A DNA stretch of 64,000 nt from Methanocaldococcus sp. 28A (GCA_049852185.1 CP187540.1); one strand, 5' to 3'. Positions 1,957 to 26,042 are shown, counted from the first letter of the stretch. Translations and numbers: made by a program. The notes: generated by a model from the sequence alone, not told the origin.

Positions 1957-2145
1957 GCTGTCCCAGATGCGTGAGAAAATGGAGTCCCAAGAGGGACAGT
2001 TATCATCAACTTTTAATTAATGGGAGGAGCTGGGGTCCCCTCGACAGGGGAAGAGACCTATGCCTCCCAATGAACCCAGAGGGAGGCTGGGTTGATGACA
2101 CTCAAGTCCAACATTGTTTATGTTGGACAGACCCCTACCCCTACT
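1957..2145 (+). ncRNA. Candidate structured ncRNA with K-turn module (HgcC-like architecture)
   Basis: GC-rich island in AT-rich intergenic DNA. Stems CTGTCCC/GGGACAG, TGGGAGG/CCTCCCA, AACCCAG/CTGGGTT, GTCCAACAT/ATGTTGGAC. TTTATATA at 1933-1940. Motif shared with the RNA at 25.8 kb. Strand inferred from the shared motif. Confidence 0.6.
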
Positions 2146-2215
2146 AAACAATTAATATTACTGATTAACTTTTTCTCTTTTAAATATTATAATGCTTTGT
2201 TTGGAGGTGAGAGTT

Positions 2216-2497
2216 ATGGTATTTGGTAGTGCAGCGAGGGAGAAAACACCTGAAGAAATATTAAAAGGGGTCGCTTTAATGTTAGATGAGATAATTAATG
2301 ATACAACAGTTCCAAGAAACATTAGAGCTGCTGCAGAAAAAGCTAAGGAAGCTGTTTTAAAAGAGGGGGAGGAACCAATTGTTAGAAGTGCAACCGCAAT
2401 TCATATATTGGATGAGATTAGCAACGACCCAAACATGCCACTTCACACAAGAACTCAAATATGGAGCATTGTTAGTGAATTAGAGAGGGTTAAATAA
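2216..2497 (+). CDS. UPF0147 family protein
   Basis: DTTVPRNIR and [13 protein letters not shown] signatures; GGAGGTGA RBS before ATG 2216. Confidence 0.9.
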
Positions 2498-3040
2498 TTT
2501 ATTTGATAAATGCTTTAAAAGTGTGAGCTTTGCCTGTTCTTCTAAAACTTCTACCTTTATATATGCATCTATCAAATCCTTTCCTAAGCACACAACACCA
2601 TGATTTTTTAATATAATTACATCTTCATCTCTTTTTGCAGTTTCTTCAGCCAATTTCAAACTACCTGCTTCAAAATAATCCACATAACCAATCTTTTTTA
2701 AAAATATTTCTCCTTCTGGTGTTAAAAGCTCAATTTCCTTATTTATTGTTGATAAAAAAGTTGAAATAAGTGAATGAGTATGAATTATTGCATTTATATC
2801 TTTTCTTTTTTTATAAATCATTAAGTGGAAATTTTTTTCTGATGTAGGTTTTCCTTTTATAACATTACCATCTAAATCAACTTCAGCTATGTCATCTTCT
2901 TTTAAAAATCCTAAGATTGAGCCAGTAGGTGTTAAATATATTTTATTTCCTTCTCTAACTGATACATTTCCCCCACTACCCACAACATACTTCCTGTCAT
3001 ACAATCTTTTACAGATTTCAATAAACTGGCTTTTATCCAT
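2480..3040 (-). CDS. fucA: L-fuculose-1-phosphate aldolase (class II aldolase)
   Basis: GGNVS, KPTSE, HTHS and NHG zinc ligands. Confidence 0.88.
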
Positions 3041-3051
3041 AATCTCACTTT

Positions 3052-3342
3052 TTATAAAATAAAAACTTTTATTAAAATTATTATAATCAAAAAATATAAG
3101 ATTACAATTAATAAGTTAATAATTAATATATATGTTTTAATAACGGACAAAATTTTTTTAAATTCATCTATTGTTCTTAAATACATCCCCATAAATATTA
3201 TAATGTCATTTTTTAGATTATTTTCAATTTTTTTATTTAATTTATTTTCATAATTAATAAGTTTTGCATCTACTCTTTTCTCAATTTCTAAAATTTTTTT
3301 ACTCAATACCTCCAATCTCTCTTCAATTTCATTATCATCCAT
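3052..3342 (-). CDS. Hypothetical protein, coiled coil plus C-terminal transmembrane helix
   Basis: 96-aa ORF co-oriented between lonB and fucA; hydrophobic C-terminus. Confidence 0.6.
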
Positions 3343-3373
3343 AGTAGCACTTCTTTTTAAACTATTTAAACTA

Positions 3374-5338
3374 TTAATTTGTTTTAATATCTTCTTTTTT
3401 ATATTTTATAGAATCTAAGTCAAATACAAGAGGTATTATTTCATCTAAAGTTTTTACAGGAATAATCTCTATTCCTTCTGTCTCAATAACATCTACCATG
3501 TTTGCCTCAGGAATTATTACTCTTTTAAACCCATATCTCTTTGCTGCCTCTATTTTTTCATTAACTCCTCCAATTGCTAAAACATTTCCACTTAAATCTA
3601 AGCTTCCAGTTATAGCGAAGTCCTGTTTTAATGGAATTTCTAATAAAGCTGAGATTATTGCTAAACAAACTGCAGCTGTAGCACTATCTCCATCAATCTT
3701 TGAATAGGACTGGCTGAATTGAATATATATATCTTTGTTATTTAGGTCAATATCCTTCTTAGGTAGTGGCAATTTACCCTCACTAACAAGTTTTTTTGAT
3801 AATGCTGAAGCCAAAGTTATTGAATGCTTTGCAATATCTCCAGAAATATTTAGTAGATGAGTTCCAGGATTTTTTGAATCTAATATTTGAACTATAATCT
3901 TTGTTACATCTCCAATTCCTCCAGTTCCTAAAACTGCTAAGCCATATATAACTCCAACCTTTGGCTTATCGTTTGGCATAATATGCTTATATCTCTTGAA
4001 GTTTTTAATGTAGTTTAATGCCACTTGTTTCTCCATACTGTAGATTCCTGATTCAAATACTTTTTTTATGTGCTCAGCTGTTATATACACTTTGCTATTT
4101 TTATCTTTTTGAGTTTCAGGTTCATAGTTACCTCTCTCATCAAAATTACCCAATAATTCCTCAATATCTTTGCCCATTGCTACATCATTAGCCATTTTTA
4201 TTATATTTGATAACAATCTTAGCCTTAAGGTTAATTTATCCTTAGAACCAGCTAAGTATTGAGCAATTTTTACAACTTCACAACATCCATCATAAGTCAT
4301 TGGGTTTAAGTTATTATTTTTAATTTCTTGAACTATAAACTGTAGTAACTTATCTCTATTCTCTAATGTGTTGTCCATCTTGTTCTTTAAAACTATTTTA
4401 TAGTCAATTCTATCCAACAATGGAGCTCTTAAATTATAAACATCATCCATGTTTCCAGACATTATTAAGATGAAATCGCAAGGTATTGGATTTGTTTCTA
4501 CAGTAGCCCCACTTGAATTTGGGTTTCTTCCACTAATTGGAAGCTTTTTATCTTGTAAGGCAGTTAAGATATAATCTTGCACTTCCAATGGCATTGTCTT
4601 TATTTCATCTACATACAAAATTCCTCTGTGTGCTTCATGAATTGCTCCCAATATAATCCTCTTATGTGGAGGAGTACCTAATGGAGGTCTTCCTCCTAAT
4701 GGACAATGTTTTATATCTCCTAACAACCTTGTTACGTTGTAAGCACTTGCTCTTACAAGAGGCCTTTTTTTGCATTCATACAGCAGAACAGGTTTTAAAT
4801 CCATTGGGCTCAAATTATTTGACATAGAAGACCTTGATGTCCCCATTATAGTAGTTAATATTATTACAAATCCAAATATTAAAACTATGAGAGATATTAT
4901 AGTTACCGCTGCAAGTAGATAGGTTTCAGGCATACCTCTTAAAAGAAACTCTGATAATAAAATTGCTATAATCATTATTAAAAGTAGAGTTGTTGAATTC
5001 GGAGATTTAAAGTCTAATTTTGCTACATCTTTGGAATCTTCTTTATATTCTCCATCAATAACCTCTACTATTGGTCTTTCCATATTGTTTAAATTTGGTT
5101 TTGCAATAACATAATAAGGTGTAAATTCTCCAAAATCTTGTAATATTTCTCCAATTGCTTTTACTATCATTGACTTCCCTACTCCTGGGTCTCCTAACAA
5201 AATAACATTTCTTTTATTTTTTACAGCTGATAAAACAATTTTTACAGCCTCATCTTGCCCAATAACTTGGTCAATCAATCTTGGAGATGGTTCAGGTAAT
5301 TCCTCAGTTGTTTTGAATTTCATTGAAAACATACTCAC
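3374..5338 (-). CDS. lonB: Archaeal membrane-anchored Lon protease (LonB)
   Basis: Walker A GDPGVGKS, two TM helices, Walker B YVDE, catalytic DGDSA and GVNEK. Confidence 0.95.
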   Translation of the reverse strand: MSMFSMKFKTTEELPEPSPRLIDQVIGQDEAVKIVLSAVKNKRNVILLGDPGVGKSMIVKAIGEILQDFGEFTPYYVIAKPNLNNMERPIVEVIDGEYKEDSKDVAKLDFKSPNSTTLLLIMIIAILLSEFLLRGMPETYLLAAVTIISLIVLIFGFVIILTTIMGTSRSSMSNNLSPMDLKPVLLYECKKRPLVRASAYNVTRLLGDIKHCPLGGRPPLGTPPHKRIILGAIHEAHRGILYVDEIKTMPLEVQDYILTALQDKKLPISGRNPNSSGATVETNPIPCDFILIMSGNMDDVYNLRAPLLDRIDYKIVLKNKMDNTLENRDKLLQFIVQEIKNNNLNPMTYDGCCEVVKIAQYLAGSKDKLTLRLRLLSNIIKMANDVAMGKDIEELLGNFDERGNYEPETQKDKNSKVYITAEHIKKVFESGIYSMEKQVALNYIKNFKRYKHIMPNDKPKVGVIYGLAVLGTGGIGDVTKIIVQILDSKNPGTHLLNISGDIAKHSITLASALSKKLVSEGKLPLPKKDIDLNNKDIYIQFSQSYSKIDGDSATAAVCLAIISALLEIPLKQDFAITGSLDLSGNVLAIGGVNEKIEAAKRYGFKRVIIPEANMVDVIETEGIEIIPVKTLDEIIPLVFDLDSIKYKKEDIKTN

Positions 5339-5478
5339 ACCTTAAACTTAGTTAAAAATTTGTTTTTTCCTGTAAATTTTTGTACATCTAAATAAATAAT
5401 TTTTATAATCTCATAATTATAATTAATAATTATAAAACTAATATTGAAAATACAAAAGCTAATATTTATAAGTTTTTA

Positions 5479-6843
5479 TTGGGTGAAAAAATGGACTTAG
5501 AGGGATATGTTAGAAGATGTCTAAGAAAAAAAATTCCAGAAAATAAGATTATTGAAGATGGATTTAAGAGAATTTTAGAAATTAAAGAAAATGTGGATGA
5601 AGAATTTGCTAAAAAGTTTATAAAAGCAATATTAGAAGAGGTAAAAACTACTGAAAAATTTAAAGAAATTGATGATGAGAATTTAAAAAACCTGTTGAAA
5701 TATCCAGAGTCAAAAGTTACAATGGGAGAAATGGGAGTTGGAAGTAGAGGAGAAGGAGATTTTTTTGTTCATAGAGAGATAGCAAGGATAGTTAAAAGCA
5801 CTAAAGTTAAAGCCTATGTTTCAGCTGAAGAGCAAGATGATGCTGGAATTGTTAAGGCTGATGCAAAATATATAGTTGCAGCAATAGATGGGACTCATTC
5901 AAGGCTTAGTGATTTCCCATTCTTAGGAGGTTTTCATGTAGCAAGAGCTGCTTTAAGAGATATTTATGTTATGGGAGCTGAGGCTGTTGCTTTAATTAGT
6001 GATGTGCATTTAGCTGATGATGGAGATATTGGAAAAATATTTGATTTTACAGCAGGAATATGTGCAGTTTCTGAGGCGGTTAATGTTCCTTTAATAGGGG
6101 GAAGCACTTTAAGAGTTGGAGGAGATATGGTAATTGGAGACAGGTTGGTTAGTGCTGTTGGAGCAATTGGAGTTATTAAAGAAGGAGAACCAACAGCAAG
6201 AAGAAATGCTGAGATTGGAGATATCATATTGATGACAGAGGGTAGTGGGGGAGGGACAATAACGACAACTGCCTTATATTACGGATGGTTTGATGTGATT
6301 TATGAAACTTTAAATGTAGATTTTATAAAAGCTTGCCAAAATTTGATTAAAAGTGGTTTAATTAAAAATATTCATGCAATGACTGATGTTACAAATGGTG
6401 GTTTAAGGGGAGATGCTTATGAAATTTCAAAAACAGCCAAAGTTTCATTAATATTTGATAAAGAGAAAGTTTATAAAACAATTAATCCAAAGGTTTTGGA
6501 AATGCTTGAAGCATTGAATATAGACCCTCTCGGTGTTTCTACAGACTCTCTAATGATTATATGTCCAGAAGAATATGCTAAAGAGATAAAAAAAGTTACT
6601 GGAGCTATAGAAGTAGGATATGTTGAAGAAGGTAATGAGAGTTATTTAGTTGATGGAAACAAAAAAATTCCACTAAAACCAATGTTTAGAGAATCTGCCT
6701 ACACACCAGTTAAAAAGGTTGTTGGTGAGAAAAAACCTAAAAACTTTGAGGAGATGAAAGAAAAGGTTAAAAAAGCATGTGATGAAGCAATTAAAAAGAA
6801 AGATTTTGTAGTTGAATTATTAAAAAAGAGGAAGGATAATTAA
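5479..6843 (+). CDS. AIR synthase (PurM/HypE/SelD/ThiL) superfamily protein
   Basis: QDDAG, IDGTH, ARRNAEIGD and TDVTNGG motifs. Confidence 0.82.
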   Translation: MGEKMDLEGYVRRCLRKKIPENKIIEDGFKRILEIKENVDEEFAKKFIKAILEEVKTTEKFKEIDDENLKNLLKYPESKVTMGEMGVGSRGEGDFFVHREIARIVKSTKVKAYVSAEEQDDAGIVKADAKYIVAAIDGTHSRLSDFPFLGGFHVARAALRDIYVMGAEAVALISDVHLADDGDIGKIFDFTAGICAVSEAVNVPLIGGSTLRVGGDMVIGDRLVSAVGAIGVIKEGEPTARRNAEIGDIILMTEGSGGGTITTTALYYGWFDVIYETLNVDFIKACQNLIKSGLIKNIHAMTDVTNGGLRGDAYEISKTAKVSLIFDKEKVYKTINPKVLEMLEALNIDPLGVSTDSLMIICPEEYAKEIKKVTGAIEVGYVEEGNESYLVDGNKKIPLKPMFRESAYTPVKKVVGEKKPKNFEEMKEKVKKACDEAIKKKDFVVELLKKRKDN

Positions 6844-6862
6844 AATAAATTTTTATAAATTT

Positions 6863-7975
6863 TTAATACTTTCCTTCTAAGATTTTTACAGCAATTTCCT
6901 TTGCTTGCTCTCTCTTCTCTTTCAAATCTTTTAAAAACTCTACAACCATTTCATAAGCCATTTTTTTACATTTACCACAAGTTAGCTCTCCATTTTTACA
7001 TTTTTGATATATATCAGCAAGTTCTTTATCATCTAAGATTAAGTGATATAAGAATAGTTCATAAATTACACATTCTTCTGGAATTCCTCCATATTTTTTA
7101 TGCTCCTCCAAAGTCTCTCTTCCTCCAGTTTTAGCTGAGAATATCTTCTTTTTAACAGTTTTTTCATCATCAGTTAAAAATATTGCTGTCTCTGGTTTTG
7201 AAGAGCTCATTTTTCCTCCTAACAATCCAGTCATAAATCTATGATAGGTTGAAGAAGGAGGGATGAAGTTATATTCCTTAGCTCTATTTGCGATATCCCT
7301 TGTTAATCTTATATGAGGGTCTTGGTCTATTCCAACGGGAACAACAACTGGTTTAGGTTCTGGATTTAAATTTTCATCAAGTTGAGGATGTAAAATATCT
7401 GCAACTTGAACTATTGGAGCAAAGACATGTCCAATATTTGTTTCTCCTTTAAATCCATAAATTGCTTTCATTTCACTCCAATTTGTTCTTTTAGATAAAA
7501 TTAAAGCCAAATCTTTAACTTTCTGATATTTTGATTGTAAATAAACATTAATTTTTTCTGGTTCCAACCCTAAAGCTATGTAGTTAGTTATATATTCATT
7601 TAAAGCTAATTCTTTTGTAGTTTCAAAGCTCATGTTTCTTGTCCAATATGCCTCCAAATCAGCTATGGGGATATTTATATTGTCAGTGTATTTTTGATAG
7701 AATTTTAATAAATCTACCACCATCTTATGCCCAAAGTGCATTTTTCCAGAAGGCATCATTCCACTAACTACTGCAAACTCTTTATTATTCTTTATAGCAT
7801 CAACTATTCTCTCAAAATCTCTATGACCCAATATAATATTCCTCCTAAAGAAATGATGCTCCTCTTTCAAATTATCCAAAACATCAGCTATTGGCTTAAC
7901 TCCAAACTGTTCCATTGTTTTTTTATAATCAATAACTGCCGGTGTTTCCCATGGAGTTAATTCCATAAATTTCAC
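6863..7975 (-). CDS. trpS: Tryptophan--tRNA ligase
   Basis: PSGKMHFGH, GIDQDPH, KMSSS. Confidence 0.97.
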   Translation of the reverse strand: MKFMELTPWETPAVIDYKKTMEQFGVKPIADVLDNLKEEHHFFRRNIILGHRDFERIVDAIKNNKEFAVVSGMMPSGKMHFGHKMVVDLLKFYQKYTDNINIPIADLEAYWTRNMSFETTKELALNEYITNYIALGLEPEKINVYLQSKYQKVKDLALILSKRTNWSEMKAIYGFKGETNIGHVFAPIVQVADILHPQLDENLNPEPKPVVVPVGIDQDPHIRLTRDIANRAKEYNFIPPSSTYHRFMTGLLGGKMSSSKPETAIFLTDDEKTVKKKIFSAKTGGRETLEEHKKYGGIPEECVIYELFLYHLILDDKELADIYQKCKNGELTCGKCKKMAYEMVVEFLKDLKEKREQAKEIAVKILEGKY

Positions 7976-8082
7976 CTTTAGAAACTTTGGGTGATTAGAT
8001 ATTACTTAAAGTAGTTTATAAACTAAATAATAAAAAATTCACTCATTTAATAATTAAAAGCATAAAAAGAAAAAAATTATTT

Positions 8083-9579
8083 TTATTTTTTTAACAATAA
8101 ATAAACATCTTCCCCACTTTTTACATTTTTTAAATATTCAGCATTTTCAACAATTTTCCCAACAATATTTGTTTTTTCAAAGCTCTCTCCTGTAGGTCCA
8201 AATTTTTCACTCTCTCCCAATCTAACGCCAATCATCCCTTTATACCTACTAACCATGTTTGTTACTCCAATAGCATATTGTTCAACTTTATCTGTTGGTG
8301 TGTTTTCAGGCAATAAACCTTTAGCATATTCAGAATTTCCTTTAAACATTATAACATCTTTATGTTTGAAATAAACATGTAATTTTCCAACTCTTTTTGT
8401 TGTTAATCCAGTAGTTTTTCTGAAATACCATGTTGTTATTGGAGCTTTATCCTCATATAACTCTATAACAACTATTTTACTCTTATCCAATCCTCTAATT
8501 TTAACTTTCTTTTCTTTTAATACCTCTAAGGTGTATTCTGGCTCTTGCTCAACAACAATTGCATTTTCTAAATCACCCTCTTTCTCTACCTCTATATTGT
8601 ATTTTTTAAATATTTCCTCAGCTTCTTCTATAGTTAAACCAATAGCACACAACCTCTCAGGGCTTATTTTCACTGACAAAATTCCAGAGTCAGAGAAATC
8701 AATAAGCTCCATCCCTTCCTGAACTCTTCCAACAACTGTATGAGATAGAGAGGAACTCCTACTTTCTCTATAGATATAAACTTTACCCTCTCCTACCCCA
8801 TAATTTCTTACGGTTATAAAGCCTCTCTCCCTATCAATTAAATTCCCTTCTTCAATTTTTAATGTTTGTAATCTGCAATCTGCAATATAAGTATTTGTAT
8901 TTTCAGAAATCTCAAATATTCCATTCTCCATTAAAGCTAAACAATGCTCTACTGCTGAAGGAGTTCCATCAAACTCAGCTGTAAAGTACGTGTAAATCTT
9001 CCAGCCATCTTCTAATTTTAAATCTAAATCAGTAGTTACTAAGTAATCAACGGCCTCTTTCTCCTCTCTAATTGGCTCTATATCTATAATTTTATCTCCA
9101 ACTTCTAACCTATTAATAACCCACTTACCTCCAACAACAATTCCAATCTTTGGCTCTTTTAATCCATAAACTCCCTCAGTTTTTTTCTTAATAAATACAA
9201 TATGTCCCTCATCTTTATCTAAACCAGATATACTTAAAACAACATCCCATTTTTTAAACTCTTTTGGTTCAGTAGAAATTTCTAAGTCAATTGTTGTTGA
9301 ACCAAAAGCCAAATCTATTCCACTAACCCATCTAAGCTTTTTCACAAAATCTTTGTAATTATTTATGAAAAATTTCGCTGTTTCGTTATCTTCAGTTATT
9401 GCTATTGTTATATTCCCCTTAGTTGTTTTAATTAAAAATTTCTTTGGAATTTTTTCAGCTTCTCTTTTAATTCCTTTTATAATAACAATATTTGCTCCCT
9501 CTTTATAATACTCATCCTTTATTACATCTTTTAAAGTTTCTCCAACCTTTTCTTTTCCATTTACAATTACCTTAGCCAT
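8083..9579 (-). CDS. Methanogenesis marker protein 3 (UPF0288, cyclophilin-like)
   Basis: [15 protein letters not shown]...[13 protein letters not shown] and FGPTGE motifs; ~500 aa. Confidence 0.8.
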
Positions 9580-9597
9580 AGTCTCACCAAATTAAAC

Positions 9598-10989
9598 TTA
9601 TTTTGAAATTATAATTGTTTTTATTTCGCTCATCTCTTCTATTGCATATTTAATTCCTTCTCTTCCTAACCCACTTTTTTTAACTCCTCCAAATGGCATA
9701 TTATCTTGCCTAAATAATGATGAATCATTTATAACTACTCCTCCAAATTCCAAATGCTCAGCAAATTTTAAAGCTTTATTAATATCATTGGTAAATACTG
9801 CTGAATGCAACCCATATTCTGTGCTGTTGGCTATATCAATCATCTCCTCTTCAGTAGTTCTAATTATTGGAATTACTGGAGCAAAAGTTTCAGTTTTGCA
9901 TAGAATGTTGTCTCTATCAACTTCCAATATTGTTGGATAAAAGAGAGCTTTATCTCTCTTTCCTCCTAAAAGCAATTTTCCTCCATCATCAATTGCTTTT
10001 TCTACAATTTTTTCAACCCATTCCGCATGTTCAACACTTATTAATGGCCCAACATCAGTTTTCTCATCCAATGGATTTCCTACATTAAGTTCTTTGGCTT
10101 TATTTACAAACATATCTATAAACTTATCTGCTATACTCTCATCAACTAAAATCATCCCCACAGAGATGCAAACCTGCCCTGCATAAATAAAGCTTCCTTT
10201 TATTAAAGAACTAACAGTTTTCTCTAAATTAGCATCTTTTAATACAATATTTGGATTAACCCCTCCCAATTCTAAGGTAATTTTTTTAAAACCTGCCTTT
10301 TTAGTTATCATCTCTCCAACTTTAACACTTCCAGTAAATGATATCATATTAACCTTCTCATTAACAACTATTTCATCTCCAACAACCTCCCCAGCCCCTG
10401 TTAGCAAATTATAAACACCTAATGGGACATTATATTTCTTTAAAGCATTTTCTATAATTTTAGCTAACTCTATACAAACAAGAGGAGCTTTTGATGATGG
10501 ATGATGAACAATAACATTCCCAGTAGCTATAGCTGGAGCTATCTTGTGAGCTGATAAATTTAGAGGGAAATTGAATGGTGTTATAGCCCCCACTATACCA
10601 ACTGGTTCTCTCTTTGTAAAAATTAATTTATCATCTGATGGGATTACCTCATCTCTAAACTCTTTAACATAAAAAGCGGCTAATTTAAATGTTCCAATAC
10701 TTCTTTCAACCTCTACTCTTCCCTGTTTTATTGGTTTCCCTGCATCTATAGCCAATATTTTAGCAAGTTCCTCTTTCTTTTCTTTAATTTGTTTGGCAAT
10801 ATTCATTAAGATGTTATATCTTTTGGTTATGGAGAGGTTTTTCATAACTTCTTTATATTTCTCAGCTATATCTATAGCTTCTTTAACCTCCTCTCTACTT
10901 AAAGCAGGGATTTTTTTAATAACTTCTAATGAATATGGGTTAATAACTTCAATATCTTCCCTATCTATCCACTTCCCATTGATGAACAT
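9598..10989 (-). CDS. NAD-dependent aldehyde dehydrogenase, probable lactaldehyde dehydrogenase
   Basis: ITPFNFP, FTGS, LELGG, GQVC, ETFAP and PFGGVKKSG motifs. Confidence 0.9.
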   Translation of the reverse strand: MFINGKWIDREDIEVINPYSLEVIKKIPALSREEVKEAIDIAEKYKEVMKNLSITKRYNILMNIAKQIKEKKEELAKILAIDAGKPIKQGRVEVERSIGTFKLAAFYVKEFRDEVIPSDDKLIFTKREPVGIVGAITPFNFPLNLSAHKIAPAIATGNVIVHHPSSKAPLVCIELAKIIENALKKYNVPLGVYNLLTGAGEVVGDEIVVNEKVNMISFTGSVKVGEMITKKAGFKKITLELGGVNPNIVLKDANLEKTVSSLIKGSFIYAGQVCISVGMILVDESIADKFIDMFVNKAKELNVGNPLDEKTDVGPLISVEHAEWVEKIVEKAIDDGGKLLLGGKRDKALFYPTILEVDRDNILCKTETFAPVIPIIRTTEEEMIDIANSTEYGLHSAVFTNDINKALKFAEHLEFGGVVINDSSLFRQDNMPFGGVKKSGLGREGIKYAIEEMSEIKTIIISK

Positions 10990-11020
10990 AATCTCACCAG
11001 ATAAAAAGAATCTTAGTAAT

Positions 11021-11136
11021 TTATGGTTGTGTGCAAAATAAAATAAACTTTAAAAAGGACAATTTGAATGCCTTCCATAAGGAAGGCATTCACTAATTCC
11101 TTATTTTAATTAAGATAGTTTTGCACACAACTATAA
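11021..11136. repeat. MITE-like palindromic repeat, family B
   Basis: Ends TTATGGTTGTGTGCAAAA / TTTTGCACACAACTATAA; internal palindrome GAATGCCTTCC-ATAA-GGAAGGCATTC. Copies at 31170, 52478 and 62741. Confidence 0.88.
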
Positions 11137-13665: not shown

Positions 13666-13891
13666 CCAAAATTAGTTCCAAAAATAGTTGAGATTTTAGG
13701 CACAGATATAATTATTCAAGCAGGGGGAGGGATTCACGGACATCCAGATGGAACTACAGCTGGAGCTAAGGCAATGAGGGCTGCTATTGAGGCAGTTATG
13801 GAGAAAAAATCTTTAGAAGAAAAAGCAGAAGAAGTTGCAGAATTAAAAAAGGCTTTAGAGTATTGGAAATAATTAATAAAAATTATTAAAT

Positions 13892-14731: not shown

Positions 14732-14924
14732 AATCTCAACCTAGATAATAATGCCTAAGGGTTCAAAACTTCCTTAATCTTCCTTAATATATCTTTTTAA
14801 TATCCATTTATGCGAAAGTCCTATCGATAGCTATATATTTATTTTATTGCAATAAATATTTATCATGGATGTCAATAATCTATCATAATTTATAATCATT
14901 AGTATTTCTAATAAGGGGGTTTCT

Positions 14925-15815: not shown

Positions 15816-15924
15816 AAATCTATAAGTAAAACATATATATTATTTATATTATTTCAATACTAATTAAGTAAAGATTTTTTATATTACTTTAAAAGATTTT
15901 ATAATTTTTTGATGAGGGATAACT

Positions 15925-17628: not shown

Positions 17629-17712
17629 CTATTAAACAAATAAACAAACTTTTTTGTCTCTTAGATTTTATTAGATAATTTTAAAATATAAACTCGTTTC
17701 TGTGGTGAAAAC

Positions 17713-19218
17713 ATGTTTAACAAAGTTTTAATTGCCAATAGAGGAGAGATAGCCATTAGAATTATAAGGGCTTGTTGGGAGCTTGGAATAAAAACTGTAG
17801 CTGTTTATTCTGAGGCAGATAAAAAAGCATTACATGTTTCTTTAGCTGATGAAGCTTATTGTATAGGAAAACCCCCTGCAGCTAAAAGTTATCTAAATAT
17901 TAATGCCATTCTAAATGTTGCTGAAAAGGCAAAAGTTGATGCTATTCATCCTGGATATGGATTTTTAGCTGAAAATGCTGAATTTGCAAGGGCTGTTAAA
18001 AAGGCAGGTTTTGAATTTATTGGGCCTAATCCTGATGCTATAGAGGCTATGGGAAGTAAGATTAATGCTAAAAAAATTATGAAAAAAGCTGGTGTGCCTT
18101 TAATTCCTGGTAGTGAGGGGGCTGTTGAAGATGTAGATGAGGCAATAGAAATTGCTGAAGAGATAGGATTTCCTGTAGTTGTTAAAGCTTCTGCTGGCGG
18201 TGGCGGAATGGGAATGAGCGTAGCATATAACAAAGAAGAGCTAAAAGAAGTTATGGAATCCGCAAGAAATATAGCAAAAAGTGCATTTGGCGACCCAACA
18301 GTGTTTATTGAAAAATACTTAGAGAATCCAAGACACATTGAAATTCAGTTATTGGGGGATAAGCATGGAAATATTATCCATTTAGGTGATAGAGAGTGTT
18401 CTATTCAAAGAAGACATCAAAAATTAATTGAAGAAGCTCCATCTCCAATAATGACTGAAGAGTTAAGAGAAAGGATGGGGGAGGCTGCAATCAAAGCAGG
18501 TAAGGCAATAAATTATGATAGCGCAGGAACTGTTGAGTTTTTATATGAAAATGGTAATTTCTACTTCTTAGAGATGAACACAAGGATTCAAGTTGAGCAT
18601 ACAGTTACAGAGCAAGTTACTGGAATTGATTTAGTTAAGGCTATGATTAGAATAGCTGCTGGAGAAGAGCTAAGCATAAAGCAAGAAGATGTTAAGATAA
18701 GAGGGCATGCAATTGAATGTAGAATAAATGCAGAAGACCCATTAAATGATTTCGTCCCATGTCCTGGAAAAATAAAGTTATATAGGTCTCCAGGAGGACC
18801 GGGGGTTAGGATAGATAGTGGTGTCTGTGGAGGGGCAGAGATTCCTCCATACTACGACCCTATGATAGCTAAATTAATAACTTATGGAAATAGCAGAGAG
18901 GAGGCAATAGCAAGGATGAGAAGAGCTTTAAAAGAGTATGTCATTGTTGGAGTAACAACAAACATCCCCTTTCACAGGGCTGTTTTAGAGGAAGAGAACT
19001 TTTTAAAAGGGAATATCTCAACTCACTATGTTGAGCAAAATATGGAAAAATTGAAAAAGAAAATGGTTCAATATACCTTAGAATCAAGAGATTTATACAG
19101 TGTTGTATCAGAGAAGGTATTTGAAAAGAACAAAAAGATTGCTGCTGTAGTTGGTGGTTTAACAATGTATATCTCCCAAATTATGAAAGAAAATGAAAAA
19201 AATGAAAAGAAACAGTAA
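17713..19218 (+). CDS. pycA: Pyruvate carboxylase subunit A (biotin carboxylase)
   Basis: [34 protein letters not shown]. Confidence 0.96.
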
Positions 19219-19280
19219 AATATCTTATAACAGTAATATTTATATAATATAAGGCAATAGTTATTAAAAGCTTCTTTTTA

Positions 19281-19374
19281 ATAGGACTTTCGCAGGAATA
19301 AAATTTTTATTGAATATAGACACCTAAAGGTGTCAAAGTTCATTAATTCAACGTATAAACTGCGAAAGTCCTAT
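19281..19374. repeat. MITE family A (IS701-type ends)
   Basis: ATAGGACTTTCGCAG...CTGCGAAAGTCCTAT with internal palindrome GACACCTAAAGGTGTC. Confidence 0.9.
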
Positions 19375-19403
19375 TTAATGAAATTAAATAAAAGGTGATA
19401 ATA

Positions 19404-19802
19404 ATGCCAGGAACTAAGCAAGTTAACGTCGGTTCTTTAAAAGTTGGACAGTATGTTATGATTGATGGAGTTCCATGTGAGATTGTAGATATCAGTGTTT
19501 CAAAGCCAGGAAAACACGGAGGAGCTAAGGCAAGAGTCGTAGGGATTGGAATATTTGAAAAAGTTAAGAAGGAGTTTGTTGCTCCAACATCAAGTAAAGT
19601 AGAAGTTCCAATAATTGACAGAAGAAAAGGACAAGTTTTAGCTTTAATTGGAGATATGGTCCAAATTATGGACTTACAAACTTATGAAACATTAGAGTTA
19701 CCAATTCCAGAAGGTATTGAAGGATTAGAGCCTGGAAGAGAAGTAGAATACATTGAAGCTGTTGGACAGTACAAAATAACAAGAGTAATTGGTGAAAAAT
19801 AA
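19404..19802 (+). CDS. eif5a: Translation factor aIF5A
   Basis: Hypusine loop SKPGKHGGAKAR. Confidence 0.97.
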   Translation: MPGTKQVNVGSLKVGQYVMIDGVPCEIVDISVSKPGKHGGAKARVVGIGIFEKVKKEFVAPTSSKVEVPIIDRRKGQVLALIGDMVQIMDLQTYETLELPIPEGIEGLEPGREVEYIEAVGQYKITRVIGEK

Positions 19803-19829
19803 ATATTTAAATTTTAAATTAAATTTCAA

Positions 19830-19929
19830 ATAGGACTTTCGCACTTTATATAATTAATATTAATAAGGAAAATATGATGCCTATGGCATCAAATCTACCT
19901 TTCAATATTTATACCTGCTAAAGTCCTAT
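19830..19929. repeat. MITE family A
   Basis: ATAGGACTTTCGCA...TGCTAAAGTCCTAT flanked by TTCAA direct repeats; internal palindrome TGATGCCTATGGCATCA. Confidence 0.9.
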
Positions 19930-20646
19930 TTCAAAAACACCATTTACAGTTCTTATAATAACATTGTTAATATATTTTTTTGCTATTTTTCCTAATTTTA
20001 TTAATTCCTCTTCTTTTGGAGGATTTATTTTTCTAAATTCTTCATCATAAGCGTCTTTTGGCTCAAACTGTTGGATTGCATATAAATCACAATCTTTGAC
20101 TGTTTTTGCTATCTCCTCTATATCACTTTCATCCATAACTTTTGGAACATATGTTGTTCTACACTCAACAAAGACATTGTTATTTTTGCATAAATCGATA
20201 ATCTTTAATATTTTCTTTTTAATTTCTTCTCCATCTTCTTCACACTTTGTAAAATCTCTGTATTTGTCAAATTTGCATTTTACATCAACTGCTACATAAT
20301 CAATTAAATTATTTTTTACAAGTTCTTCAAAAACTTCTGGTTTTGTGCCATTTGTATCAATTTTTACTGGAAATCCCTTTTCTTTAGCATATCTTGCTAT
20401 CTCTATTAAAGCATCTTTTTGCAAAGTTGGTTCCCCACCACTTATAACAATAGCGTCAGCAAAGAAAAAGTCAATATTATTAAAAAGCTCTTCAACTGTC
20501 ATTTCCTTTTTATGCTCTAAAATATATTTTAGATTATGGCAGTAAGGGCATCTCATATTACAATTATATAAAAATATGACAGCAGAGCATTTTTTTGGAT
20601 AATCAATTGTTGAAAAATCTACTATTCCTGAAACCAGAACTTTCAT
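19918..20646 (-). CDS. Radical SAM protein, anaerobic ribonucleotide reductase activase-like
   Basis: CNMRCPYCHN, SGGEPT, DTNG. Confidence 0.88.
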   Translation of the reverse strand: MKVLVSGIVDFSTIDYPKKCSAVIFLYNCNMRCPYCHNLKYILEHKKEMTVEELFNNIDFFFADAIVISGGEPTLQKDALIEIARYAKEKGFPVKIDTNGTKPEVFEELVKNNLIDYVAVDVKCKFDKYRDFTKCEEDGEEIKKKILKIIDLCKNNNVFVECRTTYVPKVMDESDIEEIAKTVKDCDLYAIQQFEPKDAYDEEFRKINPPKEEELIKLGKIAKKYINNVIIRTVNGVFEIGL

Positions 20647-20654
20647 TTTTTCAC

Positions 20655-23057
20655 CTAATCAATTTTTAGTCTTTTTAACAGAAGAATTTTAATTTCATCT
20701 TCAAGTAACATCCAAGCATGGGCAAATACCCACATAAATAAAGCTAAATTCCATCCAATTGGTGCCATAAATATTCCTTCAGCAGCCACTATAGTTCCTA
20801 TTATGTTTGTTCCCATAACTCCCCAAAATAGCCATTTATTTGGATATGGCTTTTTATAAAATCTATCTCTAATTCTTGTAACAAATATAGTAGCATGTCC
20901 TGCTAATATCAACTTTAAAAATACAAAGCTTTGCAATTCTGCAATTGTTAAATGTAAGAAAACATCTGCTATGTAGAATATTAAGAATGAACCTACGACA
21001 CCACTAAATCCCAATATAGTAGATATAATTAGAATCTCTTTCATTTTCCATTTTGCAGGATATTTTGGCTCAATAACATTGTCATAAGCTATTGCCAATA
21101 TGGGAATATCATTTAAGATTGCTAAAAGCACAATCATCAAAGCAGTTATTGGATATATTCCTAAGATTAATATACAGAGCTCAACAAAAAATAAGATTCT
21201 TATTGTCTCAGTAATTCTATAAATAACATAACTTTCCATTCTTTGAAATATTCTTCTCGCCTCTTGAATGGCATCAACAATAACAGAGATTCCTGGAGAT
21301 AATAAGACAATATCAGCAGCAGCTCTTGCGGCATCTGTTGCATTAGAAACTGCAATCCCACAATCAGCTTTTTTTAAAGCTGGAGCATCATTAACTCCAT
21401 CTCCAGTCATTGCTACCATATGGTTTTTCTTTTGCAATGAATCAACAATCTTATATTTATGCTCTGGAAATACCTCAGCAAATCCATCTGATTCTTCAAT
21501 AATATCAATAAATTCCTCTTCTTTAATTTCTCCTCTTTTTAATTTTTTCAACAATTCACTTATAGATATAATTTTGTCTCCAATTCCAAGCATCTTTGCA
21601 ATATTTTTTGCTATTGCTATATGGTCACCAGTAACCATCTTTATTTTAACTCCAAGTTCTTTAATCTTCTTAACTGCCAAAGGTGCATCTTCTCTTGGAG
21701 GGTCGTACAATGGAATTATTCCAACAAAGTACCATTTATTATTTTTATATACAGCTACACCTAAAGCTCTATAACCATTTTCAGCAAGTTTATTAACTAT
21801 TTCATTCACTTTCTTTCTTAAATTTTCATCTGCATTGCATAAGTCTAATATAACTTGAGGAGCCCCTTTTGAGACTTTAAACTCCTCTCCATTTGTAACA
21901 TCTGCTTCTGTCCTTTTAATAACTGGGTCAAAGGGTATGAATTTTTTTATTTTATATTTTTTTATTTTTTCAATTAAACCCAATTTTTTAGCCTCATTTA
22001 AAATTGCAGTATCTATAGCATCAGCATCTTCCTCTCTTGATGCCAAAGCAGCATATAAAATAACATCCTCCTTAGTAAAATTATTTAGAGCTATTATCTC
22101 TCCACATACGAGTTGATTTTTTGTCAAAGTTCCAGTTTTGTCTGAGCAGAGAATATCAACTCCTGCCAACTCCTCAATAGAAACAAGCTTTTTTACTATG
22201 ACATCTTTCTTTGCTAAATTTAATGCCCCTATAGCCATTGTTATTGAGAGAACAGCAGGCATTGCTGCAGGTATAGCAGAAACAGCCAACACTAAGGCAA
22301 ATTGAGCCGTTTCTATTAAGCTCTTTCCTCTAAATAACTCAACGGCAACCATTATTGCTATTAAAACAACTGACAAAATTATCAAATAGTTTCCAATATT
22401 AACAATCATCTTTTGATAAGAACTAACTTTTCCTGCCTTTTCAACCAACTTAACAGTTTTTCCAAAGTATGTATTTAGAGCAGTAGCTTTAACCACTCCA
22501 GTCATTTCTCCCTTTTTAACAATAGAACCAGAATAAGCAATATCCCCTATTTTCTTTTCTACTGGCAAACTCTCTCCAGTTAAGGCGGATTCATCCACAA
22601 CTAAATAATCCCCTTCGACTAATATTATATCAGCTGGAACAATATCTCCAATTCTTACTCTAATAACATCTCCTGGCACTAATTCTTTTGCTAAAATTGT
22701 TTTCCACTTTCCATCTCTTAAAACTCTTGCATTTAAAGCCATTTTTTGTTTTAAATATTCTATAACATTCTCTGCTTTATGTTCTTCCCAAAAACCTACG
22801 ACTCCATTAACAATTAATAAAATTAAAATTATAACAAAATCTACCCAGTGTTTGATTATAGCTGACAAAATAGCTGCTATCTCAATCATCCAAGCAATAG
22901 GATTCCAAAAGTATGATAGAAATTTGATTATTGGATGTACTTTCTTTTCTGGGATTTCATTATAACCATAAATTTTTAATCTTTCTTTTGCCTCTTCTGT
23001 AGATAATCCAGTTCTCAAAGAGGTTTTATATTCTTCTTCAATTTTTTTGATGTCCAT
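20655..23057 (-). CDS. P-type ATPase, plasma-membrane proton pump (IIIA) type
   Basis: LTGES, IPAAMP, CSDKTGTLT, KGAPQ, TGDGVNDAPA, AILND. Confidence 0.95.
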   Translation of the reverse strand: MDIKKIEEEYKTSLRTGLSTEEAKERLKIYGYNEIPEKKVHPIIKFLSYFWNPIAWMIEIAAILSAIIKHWVDFVIILILLIVNGVVGFWEEHKAENVIEYLKQKMALNARVLRDGKWKTILAKELVPGDVIRVRIGDIVPADIILVEGDYLVVDESALTGESLPVEKKIGDIAYSGSIVKKGEMTGVVKATALNTYFGKTVKLVEKAGKVSSYQKMIVNIGNYLIILSVVLIAIMVAVELFRGKSLIETAQFALVLAVSAIPAAMPAVLSITMAIGALNLAKKDVIVKKLVSIEELAGVDILCSDKTGTLTKNQLVCGEIIALNNFTKEDVILYAALASREEDADAIDTAILNEAKKLGLIEKIKKYKIKKFIPFDPVIKRTEADVTNGEEFKVSKGAPQVILDLCNADENLRKKVNEIVNKLAENGYRALGVAVYKNNKWYFVGIIPLYDPPREDAPLAVKKIKELGVKIKMVTGDHIAIAKNIAKMLGIGDKIISISELLKKLKRGEIKEEEFIDIIEESDGFAEVFPEHKYKIVDSLQKKNHMVAMTGDGVNDAPALKKADCGIAVSNATDAARAAADIVLLSPGISVIVDAIQEARRIFQRMESYVIYRITETIRILFFVELCILILGIYPITALMIVLLAILNDIPILAIAYDNVIEPKYPAKWKMKEILIISTILGFSGVVGSFLIFYIADVFLHLTIAELQSFVFLKLILAGHATIFVTRIRDRFYKKPYPNKWLFWGVMGTNIIGTIVAAEGIFMAPIGWNLALFMWVFAHAWMLLEDEIKILLLKRLKID

Positions 23058-23182
23058 AAATATCCCCTATATGTGGAAAAATAATAAATTAAAAAATATA
23101 GACTTCTAAAAGTATCTAAAAATTTATTAATATAATATATGTTGAATGTTCTATTTATATATTTATGCAAAATAAGCTAAAC

Positions 23183-23847
23183 TGTGGTATCCCAAAAATA
23201 TTTCGCATCTATAAATAATAAAAAAGATAACATAAATAATATGGGCGGTGTAAAACTTGACGATAAAAAGATTAAGGAAATTATTAGATGGAAGGAGAAG
23301 GGATTTAAAACGAGAGATATTGCTAAGAAGTTGGAGATATCCACTCGTAAAGTTCAGCAGATATGGAAAGAATATCGAGAGACTGTAGAAATCCCAAATA
23401 TAAAGCGTAAAGGTCGAAACCCGAGAGAAATTACTCAGGAAGAGATAGATATTGTCCTTAAAGCAGTCGAAGAATATAAGGGAACAAGCCCAGTCCATTT
23501 GGAGCATTTTATCGAACGTAGGTATAATATACATATTCCACATAATCGTATATATACTATACTGAAACAATATGGTAAAATACAACCTAAATAGGAAAAG
23601 TTGAACGGATAAATAGAGAGGTGAGTATCGACTAAATAGATTTGATAGTTTAGAAGAGTTCGTAGATTGAATGAAATCACTAATGTGATTTCATAGCTCT
23701 TCACTACGCTCCAATTGAAATAATAAAATAAAACCACATCGTTCTTTAGATTATAGGACTCCTTATGAAGTTTATTTCGGAAATATAGTTAATAATATGG
23801 AGGTAATTTCATGAATTATAATTGCGAAATAATTTCAGGATACCACA
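23183..23847 (+). mobile_element. IS481-like element with internal deletion (non-autonomous)
   Basis: 25-bp TIRs TGTGGTATCCCAAAAATATTTCGCA / TGTGGTATCCTGAAATTATTTCGCA with TGT...ACA ends. HTH region is joined directly to a GKVER fragment; the DDE core is missing. Confidence 0.85.
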
Positions 23848-23866
23848 CTGAATTTGGAGGGAGATT

Positions 23867-25707
23867 ATGAAAAAAATGCTAGCTTTGCTGTTAATAATAT
23901 TTCTTTTAAATTCAGCTTTTGCAGTAATTATAAAAGCTCCAGCTGTGTCTTTGACAGATGTAGGATATATTGGAGTTCCAATAAATATACAAATAAATGT
24001 TACTAAAGGAGATGGGCACGTTTTCATGGATACTATGCCCTTAACTGAATTAGACATGCAGGGCTCTGCAAGAATCGCTGCAAGAGTGGCAGGAGAAGTA
24101 ACAGGAAAAGACATAAACAAATACAATACCTACATTATTGTTAGAAGTGATGTTCCAGTTATTGGAGGGCCATCAGCAGGAGGAACAATGACTATAGGTA
24201 TTATCTGTGCATTAATGAACTGGACTATAAATAAAAATGTTATGATGACGGGTACAATAAACCCGGATGGTAGTATTGGTCCAGTAGGGGGAATTTTGGA
24301 AAAAATAGAAGCAGCTAAAAAAGCAAATTGTACAATTATGCTAATACCAAAAGGGCAGAGGTATATTGAAGTAGATGGTAATAAAGTAGATGCAGTGGAA
24401 TTTGGTAAAAAATTGGGGATTAAAGTTATAGAAGTAGGAAGTATTTATGATGCAATTCCTTACTTTACTAATAAAAAAATTGTTATGAAAGAATATCCTA
24501 AAAATCCAATTATTGAGGATAAATACCAAAAAATAATGAAACATTTATGTGAAGACATCTTAAAATTGGCAAATAAAAAGTATGAAAATGTATCCAAAGA
24601 ATTGAATGAAGACTTATATATTATTAATTATGAATATCAAAAAATGTTATCGTCTGAGCTAATAGCTTCAAAAACCTTATTAGAGAAAGCTAATCAAGAA
24701 TATATAAAGCTAATCAAGAATATATTAATAATAAATATTATTCTGCAACATGTTCAGCATTTAATGCATTAATTAAACTTGAAACTATTGAACATACCCT
24801 AAAATACTTAACTGGTGAAGAAGATATAAAAAATTACCTTTTAAATGTTCAAAATAAGATAAACTATGATAAAGAAATAGTTTATTCAAAAAATTTAACT
24901 GTAGATAACTTTGAAGAAATATTAGCAGGAAGAGTTAGAATTGCTGAAGCTGAAGAGCTCTTAGACAAAGCTTGGAAGTCTTATTACTTAGGAAATTATG
25001 ACGATGCAATAAAATACGGTAGCTTTGCAAAGTTAAGAGGGGATAGTGCAGTGTGGTGGGTTTCTTTATATGAAAACAATGAAAGTGAAAGAATAAATGA
25101 ATCTAAATTAAAATCTTTAGCTCAGCAGTATTTAGATAATGCTGAAACAATTTCAACTTATGTAGAGACATTATACCCTAACTTAGTTACTGGAGATCTT
25201 GAAAATGATTTAGAATCAGCAAAAAAAGCTTATAATCAGAAAGATTATCTATTGGCAATAGCTAAAAGCATAGACACTTGCGTAAAAGCAGAGATTCCAT
25301 TAGTTATATTTGGGGATATGAAATATTTTATAGAATATTTAAAAAAATATTCAAGAGATAAAATAAACATGGCTGAAAACTTAGGAATAACTCCAATATC
25401 TGCCCTTGGTTATTATGAATATGCAAATAGCTTAGATGACAACATATCAAAGATTATGTATTATAAATATAGCTCATACTATGCCCAAATGGATGTAGAT
25501 GTGGTAAAAGAGTTGAATGAGGTTAATAAAGGAACTAAAGAAAGTTTTGAGAATGAAATTGATATAATTAATACAAATGAAAATATTGTTAATGAAGAAA
25601 CTGCCACAAAGCAAAATAATAATAACATTACCATTATCATATCTACAATAGTTGGAGGACTGATAGGGTTTGTAGGAGGATACTTTGCAAGAAAAGTTTC
25701 TACTTAA
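23867..25707 (+). pseudogene. Secreted/membrane-anchored Lon-type (S16) serine protease, frameshifted by a 20-bp tandem duplication
   Basis: Signal peptide, GGPSAG and GILEK dyad, C-terminal TM helix. Removing one AAAGCTAATCAAGAATATAT unit gives one open frame of 606 aa. Confidence 0.9.
24686..24725. repeat. Perfect 20-bp tandem duplication
   Basis: AAAGCTAATCAAGAATATAT x2. Confidence 0.97.
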
Positions 25708-25720
25708 TTAGACTGTTTCC

Positions 25721-25926
25721 CATTTCCATAGCTTATCATAGTATAACAAATTATCATACAAACTGATAGCTATGGAAATGTGTTGTCCTCAACCCATAGC
25801 TTCATAGAGATTACTAATCTCTCTACTAAGGGTTCATTGGACTTCGGGCTGAACGGATACAGCCCCACAAACCTTATATTATTAAATTATGTTAGCCTCG
25901 AAGGTAGAGCCCTCTCATCAGCCAAT
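25721..25926 (-). ncRNA. Candidate HgcC-like structured ncRNA with K-turn and 3' long hairpin
   Basis: Minus strand ATTGGCTGATGAGAGGGCTCTACC...GGGCTG-TATCCGTT-CAGCCCGAAGTCCAATGAACCC...GGGTTGAGGAC, then hairpin CATTTCCATAGCT.../...AGCTATGGAAATG. AT-rich TATA-like element at ~25941-25953. Family assignment is from recollection only. Confidence 0.65.
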
Positions 25927-26041: not shown

Positions 26042-26042
26042 C

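Follow-up and report, generated by a model that had tools for sequence, protein, structure and literature searches.

Two small GC-rich RNA loci, at about 2 kb and 25.8 kb of a 64,000-nt stretch of the genome of Methanocaldococcus sp. 28A (GCA_049852185.1 CP187540.1; this whole stretch is called the window below), raise the question of what these orphan RNAs are and whether they belong together. A first-pass annotation of the window described them as one RNA scaffold with variable modules, possibly domesticated guide RNAs loaded in trans by a TnpB-derived protein together with L7Ae. Comparison with the rest of the genome and with related archaea points, with a probability of about 0.85, to both loci being gene-less derivatives of two transposons of the insertion sequence (IS) family IS200/IS605 (TnpB-only, IS1341-like) which have kept the omega-RNA part, also termed right-end element RNA (reRNA). 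Intact tnpB genes of the two families, designated A (2-kb locus) and B (25.8-kb locus), are present elsewhere in the same genome. Family membership, the position at tnpB 3' ends, the element boundaries, an insertion polymorphism and covarying helices are observed directly.

Motif instances and repeat families

Re-reading of the window gave the same two motif instances as reported initially. Positions 2067-2099 of the plus strand consist of CCAATGAACCC, 11 nt and GGGTTGATGAC, and positions 25840-25785 of the minus strand of CCAATGAACCC, 34 nt and GGGTTGAGGAC. The pattern CCRATGAACC-N5-60-GGTTGANGRC, proposed for finding relatives, has 6 matches in the genome (1,555,991 bases, 29.7% GC) versus 0 for the reversed control pattern; both instances are real and non-random. 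The folds also contain the hairpin expected downstream of the motif at both loci.

The prediction of a multi-member family was borne out, since both loci belong to dispersed multi-copy families, found order-wide among 40 Methanococcales genomes. Within the own genome, blastn yielded 20 high-scoring segment pairs for the 2-kb locus and 14 for the 25.8-kb locus. The alignment of family A in this genome comprises 8 copies with a conserved right end, a ninth variant and one solo end hairpin; family B has two copies joined to tnpB genes and at least five lacking tnpB. The genome contains 8 matches to the TnpB zinc-ribbon domain and one Y1 tnpA.

Two side observations concern these repeats. The solo family-A right-end hairpin (G000:C1:134501-134555) stands without a scaffold and is readable on both strands. 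The only Y1 tnpA of the genome adjoins a third type of tnpB with a tandemly duplicated 3' part (G000:C1:829348-831249).

Position at the 3' ends of tnpB genes

Family-B RNA overlaps the last ~110 nt of the gene for the 440-aa protein TnpB-B (C1:448855-450174) and runs on to GGGAAAC; the 3' end of a broken second TnpB-B copy is likewise overlapped by family-B RNA continuing to GGGAAAC. In the tnpB-less copies, including that of the window, the ~50 nt encoding the second zinc-finger half and the residues A-D-R-D are swapped for a short AT-rich stretch, and a left end takes the place of the gene upstream of the first K-turn (kink-turn) hairpin. Order-wide, family-B RNA was found in 11/40 genomes and TnpB-B in 9/40, and all TnpB-B matches keeping the C-terminus (11/11, two tables compared by eye) are overlapped at the 3' end by family-B RNA.

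For family A, the 5' part of the RNA is a relic of the first C-x-x-C of TnpB-A. The covariance model of the family-A K-module (R2) has 132 matches in 21/40 genomes. An R2 match lies at or just past the 3' end of 38 of the 41 TnpB-A matches, the other three being N-terminal fragments, and ~94 of the 132 R2 matches stand alone. TnpB-A is present in 14 of the 15 genomes with family-A RNA found by blastn, although these genomes are kin and the counts are not independent.

Copies of family A are alike up to GACCCC, and those of family B up to GGGAAAC followed by G or A; beyond these points, they are unrelated, and in an omega-RNA the guide would begin there. Judged from these positions, families A and B are the 3' ends of tnpB genes, i.e., predicted omega-RNAs. 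The two RNAs had been suspected of being omega-RNA-like and derived from tnpB, and the placement at tnpB 3' ends (38/41 for A, 11/11 for B) agrees with this, as does the co-occurrence of both families with their cognate TnpB in the order.

Neither window copy adjoins a tnpB, so any loading would have to be in trans; the genes alongside are those of a C-5 DNA methylase, a UPF0147 protein and a glutamine amidotransferase with an intein, besides an unassigned open reading frame (ORF) of 218 aa. According to the ORF lists, no protein-coding gene lies between the element ends at either locus.

Structure and boundaries of the 2-kb locus

In seven sister genomes the site is empty, the flanks of the 2-kb locus being contiguous or at most 5 nt apart; the junction alignment was made with three of them. 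The insertion in the window is 214 nt long (1928-2141) and has the following parts, all on the plus strand.

1928-2141: family-A mini-element, a tnpB-less IS200/IS605 derivative, defined by the empty sites in sister genomes and containing no TnpB ORF.
1933-1940: TATA-box-like element TTTATATA, named for its likeness to the archaeal TATA consensus; it precedes the first stem by ~24 nt, other family-A copies have the box at the aligned position, and a promoter role is presumed.
1958-1999: 5' stem CUGUCCC...GGGACAG, a remnant of the tnpB zinc-ribbon coding sequence with CPRC in frame, as recognised from the fold and from comparison with TnpB-A 3' ends.
2041-2106: family-A K-module, scoring 73.1 bits (E 6.6e-16) with model R2; pair counts agree, and the minimum free energy (MFE) fold has the stem GCCUCCC/GGGAGGC.
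2047-2058: non-bulged strand of the outer K-turn, GGGGAA-GA-GACC.
2062-2087: apical K-loop (kink-loop) GCCUCCC-AAU-GA-ACCCA-GA-GGGAGGC.
2090-2103: bulged strand of the outer K-turn, GGUU-GAU-GA-CACUC.
2106-2135: right-end hairpin GUCCAACAU...AUGUUGGAC with the tail AGACCCC, the conserved element end; copies are alike to GACCCC and then diverge.
2136-2155: putative omega-RNA guide position, derived from the flank and beginning with TACCCC; the guide role is predicted, and the stretch has no second perfect match in the genome.

The ViennaRNA MFE structure of this RNA, with the GCCUCCC/GGGAGGC stem present, has z = -3.42. Of the two end hairpins, the window copy retains the right one and lacks the left one, and so it is probably no longer mobile. 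At the right boundary of the insertion (2130-2147), CCCCTA occurs twice in tandem, and these 6 nt fit the element or the target alike.

Structure and boundaries of the 25.8-kb locus

The family-B element has both a left end, common to two other copies, and a right-end hairpin, and an AT-rich box like the TATA-like box of the 2-kb locus lies upstream of its RNA. Its parts, all on the minus strand, are as follows.

25714-25987: family-B mini-element, resembling palindrome-associated transposable elements (PATEs), with left end, omega-RNA scaffold and right end, without tnpB, as determined from the alignment with full and tnpB-less copies and from the ORF list.
Within 25714-25987: left end GTTTGAAACAGTTT, common to two other copies.
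25894-25923: K-turn hairpin Kt-a, GGCU-GAU-GA-GAGGGC-UCU-ACCUUC-GA-GGCU, with 22 distinct instances, present in the MFE fold.
25846-25865: hairpin GGGCUG...CAGCCC, helix 1 of the pair count, with 96.2% of cells paired.
25785-25842: double K-turn hairpin GUCC-AAU-GA-A-CCCUUAG-UA-GA-GAGAUU-AGU-AAUCUC-UAU-GA-AG-CUAUGGG-UU-GA-GGAC (helices 2-4); the family-B model R1 scores 104.4 bits over 25782-25866.
25715-25781: right-end hairpin CAUUUCCAUAGC...GCUAUGGAAAUG with the tail GGAAAC, the conserved element end, seen in the fold; 28/28 relatives end in GGGAAAC(G/A) and then diverge.
25695-25714: putative omega-RNA guide position AGUCUAAUUAAGUAGAAAC, with a predicted guide role and no second perfect match in the genome.

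The guide position overlaps the 3' end of a convergent ORF (25051-25707). The MFE structure recovers all of the proposed family-B helices (z = -6.39). The left and right flanks of this locus map to different places in relatives, and an empty site is not definable. In sister genomes, the two flanks of the element (window 25000-26700) lie far apart, and therefore the family-B element is at a synteny breakpoint, possibly through rearrangement between repeat copies. No left end resembling that of the tnpB-less copies was found by blastn at the full-length family-B copy of the own genome.

K-turn and K-loop modules

A K-turn consists of a canonical stem (C-stem), a 3-nt bulge, tandem sheared G.A/A.G pairs and then a non-canonical (NC) stem or a loop. 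Family B was aligned with 28 sequences from 11 genomes (alignment A1) and family A with 39 sequences (alignment A2), for which 2 of the 34 sequences found by regular expression were dropped for want of a 5' half and seven loci of the own genome were added.

The family-B consensus is represented by a 5' K-turn hairpin GGCU-GAU-GA-GAGGGC...GCCUUC-GA-GGCU, a plain hairpin and a last hairpin containing two K-turns of opposite orientation, GUCC-AAU-GA-A-[7-9 bp]-NA-GA-[6-bp hairpin]-GAU-GA-AG-[...]-UU-GA-GGAC. In the 25 specified pairs of the core, 94.9% of cells are standard pairs, versus 29.9-47.1% with the partners slid, and 7 pairs (35 cells) are changed on both sides. None of 500 shuffles reached the observed pairing, cell count or covariation score, and 39 reached the pair count. 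In all 28 sequences, both bulged strands have AUGA and both partner GAs keep their A; of the two partner Gs, one is conserved in at least 90% and the other is replaced by A in 3/28. In the C-stem of Kt-a, the 22 distinct instances have compensatory changes at pair -2 (CG in 13, TA in 6) and pair -3 (GC in 10, AT in 7).

All variants of family A contain an outer K-turn GGGGCA-GA-[C-stem] ... [C-stem]-GAU-GA-CGCCC. Its C-stem is GACC/GGUU in most copies, GGUU/AACU in another copy and GGUUUCC/GGAAACU in the RNAs attached to the intact TnpB-A genes of the own genome. An apical K-loop, CUCCC-AAU-GA-ACCCA-GA-GGGAG, occurs in most copies and is absent from one lineage. The 14 specified pairs of the module are paired in 86.4% of cases, versus 19.9-50.4% when slid, with 7 pairs changed on both sides. 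The signature GA/GA bases of the K modules are invariant or at least 89% conserved. A middle K-turn, GACC-GAU-GA ... GA-GGUU, is suggested by signature bases in most long variants, its NC side being an irregular internal loop; the window copy lacks it.

The first-pass annotation had placed a UGA/UGANGA pair around an ACCC/GGGU helix at both loci. This holds for the 25.8-kb locus: the K-turn there has GUCC/GGAC as its C-stem and AAU as its bulge, followed by tandem GA/GA and a helix that begins with ACCC/GGGU and shows compensatory changes. It fails for family A, in which this helix is at shuffle level: 68.3% of its cells are standard pairs, a value reached by 201/500 shuffles and by a +1 slide (68.5%), and the fourth pair is standard in only 2/23 cells. 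In this family, CCAAUGA-ACCCA-GA makes up a K-loop, which GCCUCCC/GGGAGGC closes, and GGUUGAUGAC provides the bulged strand of the separate outer K-turn, with GGGGAA-GA-GACC as its partner.

K-turn motifs to which L7Ae could bind, as had been anticipated, are thus present with covariation, and two L7Ae-family genes were found in the genome. L7Ae probably binds the K-turn and K-loop motifs of these RNAs.

Two families rather than one and rejected RNA classes

The proposal that both loci would align under one covariance model was contradicted by the cross-searches. Model R1 gave 104.4 bits for the 25.8-kb locus and only 8.9 bits for the 2-kb locus, the seventh of 13 noise-level matches; model R2 gave 73.1 bits for the 2-kb locus and did not list the 25.8-kb locus at E<=10, each window copy being part of the training set of its own model. 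The cognate proteins TnpB-A and TnpB-B are 24.6% identical over 236 aa. Accordingly, there are two families rather than one. Outside the motif the two loci are unlike, as had been noted initially; blastn with either locus gave 0 cross matches.

A single K-turn of family B has CCAAUGAACC as one strand and GGUUGAGGAC as the other; in family A, these two words are split between two motifs. Since the cross-model searches fail, the common words CCAAUGAACC and GGUUGA-GAC are K-turn strand sequences located at non-equivalent positions in the two scaffolds. The ten identical letters in both families possibly reflect a common protein partner, or else chance.

Searching all 4227 Rfam families at E<=10 gave no match for the two loci. 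The resemblance of the 25.8-kb copy to HgcC, suggested initially, did not hold up: at E<=10, RF00062 matches neither locus, and nowhere in the genome does it reach the 50-bit cut-off. Six weak RF00062 matches are present genome-wide, none reaching 50 bits, and one of them (14.1 bits, 829308-829377) is situated just downstream of the third tnpB type. HgcC RNAs and families A and B are alike as GC-rich small RNAs of an AT-rich hyperthermophile; with RF00062 below cut-off genome-wide and silent at both loci, HgcC identity is ruled out.

Neither locus is a box C/D or an H/ACA RNA, in agreement with the initial description. No Rfam C/D match rises above noise, and the spacers pair with each other; likewise, the loci give no H/ACA match, and the 28 family-B relatives do not conserve an ACA following the hairpin. 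Both readings are therefore rejected. Family B does resemble archaeal box C/D small RNAs (sRNAs), whose K-turn-type motifs are bound by L7Ae, in having two such motifs on one RNA in the order AAUGA / AGA / GAUGA / (C/U)UGA, but its first box is not RUGAUGA, and its two 7-9-nt spacers pair mutually and covary, unlike the unpaired guide spacers of ~12 nt in C/D sRNAs.

TnpB proteins and the RuvC-III site

Two genes encoding TnpB-A are present outside the window, at G000:C1:632367-633626 and 1519091-1520434, and both encode N-R-Q at the RuvC-III site. In the HMMER alignment, the TnpB-A sequence F-N-R-Q-L-V-G-C-F-N-I stands against H-D-R-D-E-N-A-A-L-N-I of ISDra2 TnpB (8bf8/8exa), with N and Q at the positions of D359 and D361. 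The second Asp, D361, is taken here to be the RuvC-III catalytic residue. The homolog set comprised 107 proteins of at least 380 aa from Methanococcales and Thermococcales; the position equivalent to D361 is Q in 105 and H in 2, and two positions before it, 67 proteins have D and 40 have N. All 107 retain the RuvC-I Asp and the RuvC-II Glu. On the midpoint-rooted tree, D and N interchange at least nine times, and one 19-member clade (support 1.0), in which all members have N, includes both TnpB-A genes of the own genome. NCBIfam places the TnpB-A proteins under the general TnpB subfamily. TnpB-B of the own genome keeps D, E and A-D-R-D, i.e., the full triad.

These residues allow two readings: the acidic position may have shifted by two residues, the own-genome copies then being without it, or the whole TnpB-A clade may be cleavage-deficient; in the latter case, TnpB-A may be an archaeal TnpB clade that is deficient and still multi-copy. 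The suggestion of a RuvC-dead tnpB as a partner agrees with the TnpB-A proteins of the own genome, which are without the RuvC-III acidic residues. Nuclease-dead TnpB-like transcription regulators are known as TldR. TnpB-A is similar to them in being without the usual RuvC-III acid residue and differs in being multi-copy with transposon ends; for the guides, no conserved chromosomal target was found.

Proposed mechanism and alternative explanations

In the proposed mechanism, the cassette would be transcribed from its own TATA-like box, its scaffold would fold, and the one to three K-turn/K-loop modules would probably be bound and stabilised by L7Ae. A cognate TnpB from another copy could bind the scaffold in trans, and the ~16-20 nt copied from the DNA past the right end would act as a guide that brings TnpB to the element-free form of that site, which would parallel the published retention/homing role of TnpB. 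The two window copies would themselves be transcribed, bound by L7Ae, loaded in trans and active. At the guide positions of 13 copies, the 16 nt match perfectly only at their own site in the genome; allowing up to 3 mismatches gives many further matches, as is usual at ~30% GC. The absence of a second perfect match fits a guide to the own site, for homing or retention, with no sign of trans targets. A wider proposal makes L7Ae an integral third component of archaeal TnpB ribonucleoproteins (RNPs): omega-RNAs with up to three K-turn/K-loop modules (arranged in family B like a C/D sRNA with paired spacers) and promoter-bearing tnpB-less cassettes would feed guides in trans to recipients including a widespread archaeal clade with (D/N)-R-Q in place of D-R-D at RuvC-III, which may bind DNA and not cut it. 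This we consider unlikely.

Several points weigh against the transposon-derivative reading. With N-R-Q in both TnpB-A genes, family-A RNPs may not cleave DNA. The sister genome G006 contains 16 family-B RNA matches and, with the query used, only broken pieces of TnpB-B; guide-RNA cassettes thus outlive their nuclease gene, as in G006. The sequences used for counting pairs had also served to draw the structures, a bias in favour of these in the slide control; many aligned copies are recent duplicates, and covariation among dispersed copies may stem from tnpB-linked masters and does not thereby indicate selection on the window copies. The right boundary of the 2-kb insertion (2135 or 2141) is ambiguous owing to the 6-nt repeat TACCCC at the junction, and the left-end hairpin seen in 6 other family-A copies is missing there. 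Only 3 family-B left ends matched the pattern in the own genome and 0 at the relatives' loci, too few for a transposon-associated motif (TAM). The only RNA runs found were a vent metatranscriptome with 0.11 of the sampled words and five runs joined to it by study or sample; four RNA runs placed nothing on window 1700-2600 at 90% likeness, which is uninformative on expression either way.

Some of these points, namely, the lost left end, the broken TnpB-B of G006 and the empty result for 1700-2600, would also suit inert fossils, i.e., decaying remnants whose transcript is noise and whose conservation comes from recent copying from active masters. A U-U mismatch in the main helix of the 25.8-kb copy and several other copies that are truncated or have GA-to-AA changes point the same way. 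Yet every K-turn signature base is kept in both window copies, which score 73.1 and 104.4 bits (albeit as members of the training sets), the TATA-like box is kept upstream, an intact TnpB-B with its D, E and D residues is encoded in the genome, and the analogous Pyrococcus abyssi loci are expressed (PMC3124441); decay into fossils is a possibility to be kept in mind, though an unlikely one. Domestication, by which promoter-bearing tnpB-less cassettes would provide a nuclease-deficient TnpB-derived protein and L7Ae with guides in trans, for TldR-like regulation through RNA-guided DNA binding, would account for N and Q at D359/D361, for Q or H at the second position in all 107 homologs, for the 19-member clade with N at the first position and for the ~94/132 family-A modules standing alone. 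However, the 2-kb locus, absent from seven sister genomes, is a recent insertion and not a conserved regulator, TnpB-A genes are multi-copy with right-end hairpins kept, the guide positions lack a second perfect target, the repeated D/N flips look like lability rather than one exaptation, and family-B TnpB keeps its full triad. The domestication put forward in the first-pass annotation is therefore improbable, both families being dispersed transposon copies; its reading of an omega-RNA with K-turns and TnpB in trans is essentially right, for ordinary transposon relics rather than a domesticated system.

A cis-acting leader at the 2-kb locus, read through into the UPF0147 gene and regulating it, is suggested by the position of the element, which has the same orientation as the UPF0147 gene and precedes its start (2192/2217) by ~55-80 nt, by its TATA-like box and by a similar proposal made once for P. 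abyssi sRkB (PMC3124441). But the UPF0147 gene occurs in sister genomes without the element, its native upstream region, including the TATA-like TTTTAAATAT, still lies between element and gene, and the 25.8-kb locus has no same-strand downstream gene, so a leader role is highly improbable. One new family of K-turn RNPs without any relation to transposons, whether a C/D or H/ACA modification guide or HgcC, with a constant scaffold and variable modules, would explain the 10-11-nt words in common and the family-B hairpin order AAUGA ... AGA ... GAUGA ... (C/U)UGA, which recalls C, D', C', D. It is largely refuted, and its chance is minimal, given the failed cross-model searches, the lack of significant Rfam C/D, H/ACA or HgcC matches at either locus, the mutually paired spacers, the ACA not conserved after the hairpin and the ties of both families to tnpB 3' ends.

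Comparison with known systems

The omega-RNA (reRNA) of TnpB in IS200/IS605 elements of the ISDra2 type was reportedly described in 2021 by Karvelis and by Altae-Tran. Families A and B are similar in overlapping or abutting the tnpB 3' end, running to the right end and having the flank at the guide position, as well as in their structured, covarying scaffold and co-occurring cognate TnpB. They differ in their K-turn/K-loop modules and the lack of an Rfam match, the window copies are without tnpB, and the families are known here from sequence alone.

Meers et al. (PMC10055086) state that PATEs "often encode omega-RNAs" and that TnpB must act on them in trans. The window elements are like PATEs in being gene-less and multi-copy, with conserved ends, a kept omega-RNA, a predicted need for TnpB in trans and, at the 2-kb locus, insertion polymorphism; the PATE examples are bacterial (Geobacillus), unlike the elements of this Methanococcales archaeon, and the 2-kb copy is without a left-end hairpin.

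In P. abyssi, sRk48, sRk52, sRkB and sRkC are repeated loci related to orphan orfB 3' ends, with a transcription factor B recognition element (BRE)/TATA 24 nt upstream (Phok et al. 2011, PMC3124441). In the same work, sRkB and sRkC have two K-turns and sRk52 a K-loop, L7Ae binding was detected by gel shift and footprint, and similar L7Ae-binding transposase-linked Sulfolobus RNAs are cited; the article predates the omega-RNA concept and proposes riboswitch-like roles. By this description, the sRk RNAs are the same kind of object as families A and B, being intergenic repeats at orfB (tnpB) 3' ends with their own BRE/TATA and K-turns or a K-loop, although they come from Thermococcales, their L7Ae binding is experimental, and the likeness is one of description. 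TnpB-A has homologs in Thermococcus with 45-51% identity. Sense-overlapping non-coding RNAs (sotRNAs) at the 3' end of haloarchaeal IS1341-type tnpB genes are reported in PMC4615843, and families A and B share this position in archaeal tnpB genes. A possible kink-turn is mentioned for the bacterial IS607 reRNA RAGATH-18 in PMC11061315. Closely similar RNAs are thus already in print as omega-RNA PATEs and as L7Ae-binding P. abyssi sRkB, sRkC and sRk52, and the RNAs of the window are further members. The literature searched, which excludes subscription journals, yielded no paper naming L7Ae as part of a TnpB-omega-RNA complex, and the L7Ae RNA immunoprecipitation sequencing (RIP-seq) paper PMC5539422 has no occurrence of the words transposase, IS200, OrfB or transposon.

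This reading makes the two GC-rich orphan RNAs, along with about a hundred relatives in Methanococcales, probable transposon guide-RNA cassettes and averts their annotation as a new RNP family, and the L7Ae-binding transposase-related RNAs described from Pyrococcus in 2011 may, by analogy, be re-read as omega-RNAs. The comparison yields omega-RNA scaffolds that are natural and thermostable and have clear K-turn modules, together with their cognate TnpBs, of which one has a full triad and one is without the third acidic residue. With this set, the part of L7Ae in archaeal TnpB complexes and the action of TnpB with an altered RuvC site become testable.

Other features of the window

The gene of a C-5 cytosine DNA methylase (26111-27052, minus strand) immediately precedes the family-B element, in the same orientation. 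Between it and the family-B left end lies a stretch of ~65 nt (26046-26110) with many repeats in several sister genomes at 85-94% identity, which contains the hairpin ACACCUCC...GGAGGUGU. At 3-1874 (minus strand), the glutamine amidotransferase gene is split by an intein with a LAGLIDADG domain and helix-turn-helix (HTH) domains; this intein is unrelated to the RNA loci. The sole Rfam match in the window at gathering score is a Pab160-type H/ACA sRNA at 38947-39017 (plus strand), with 66.9 bits against a gathering score of 47.4.

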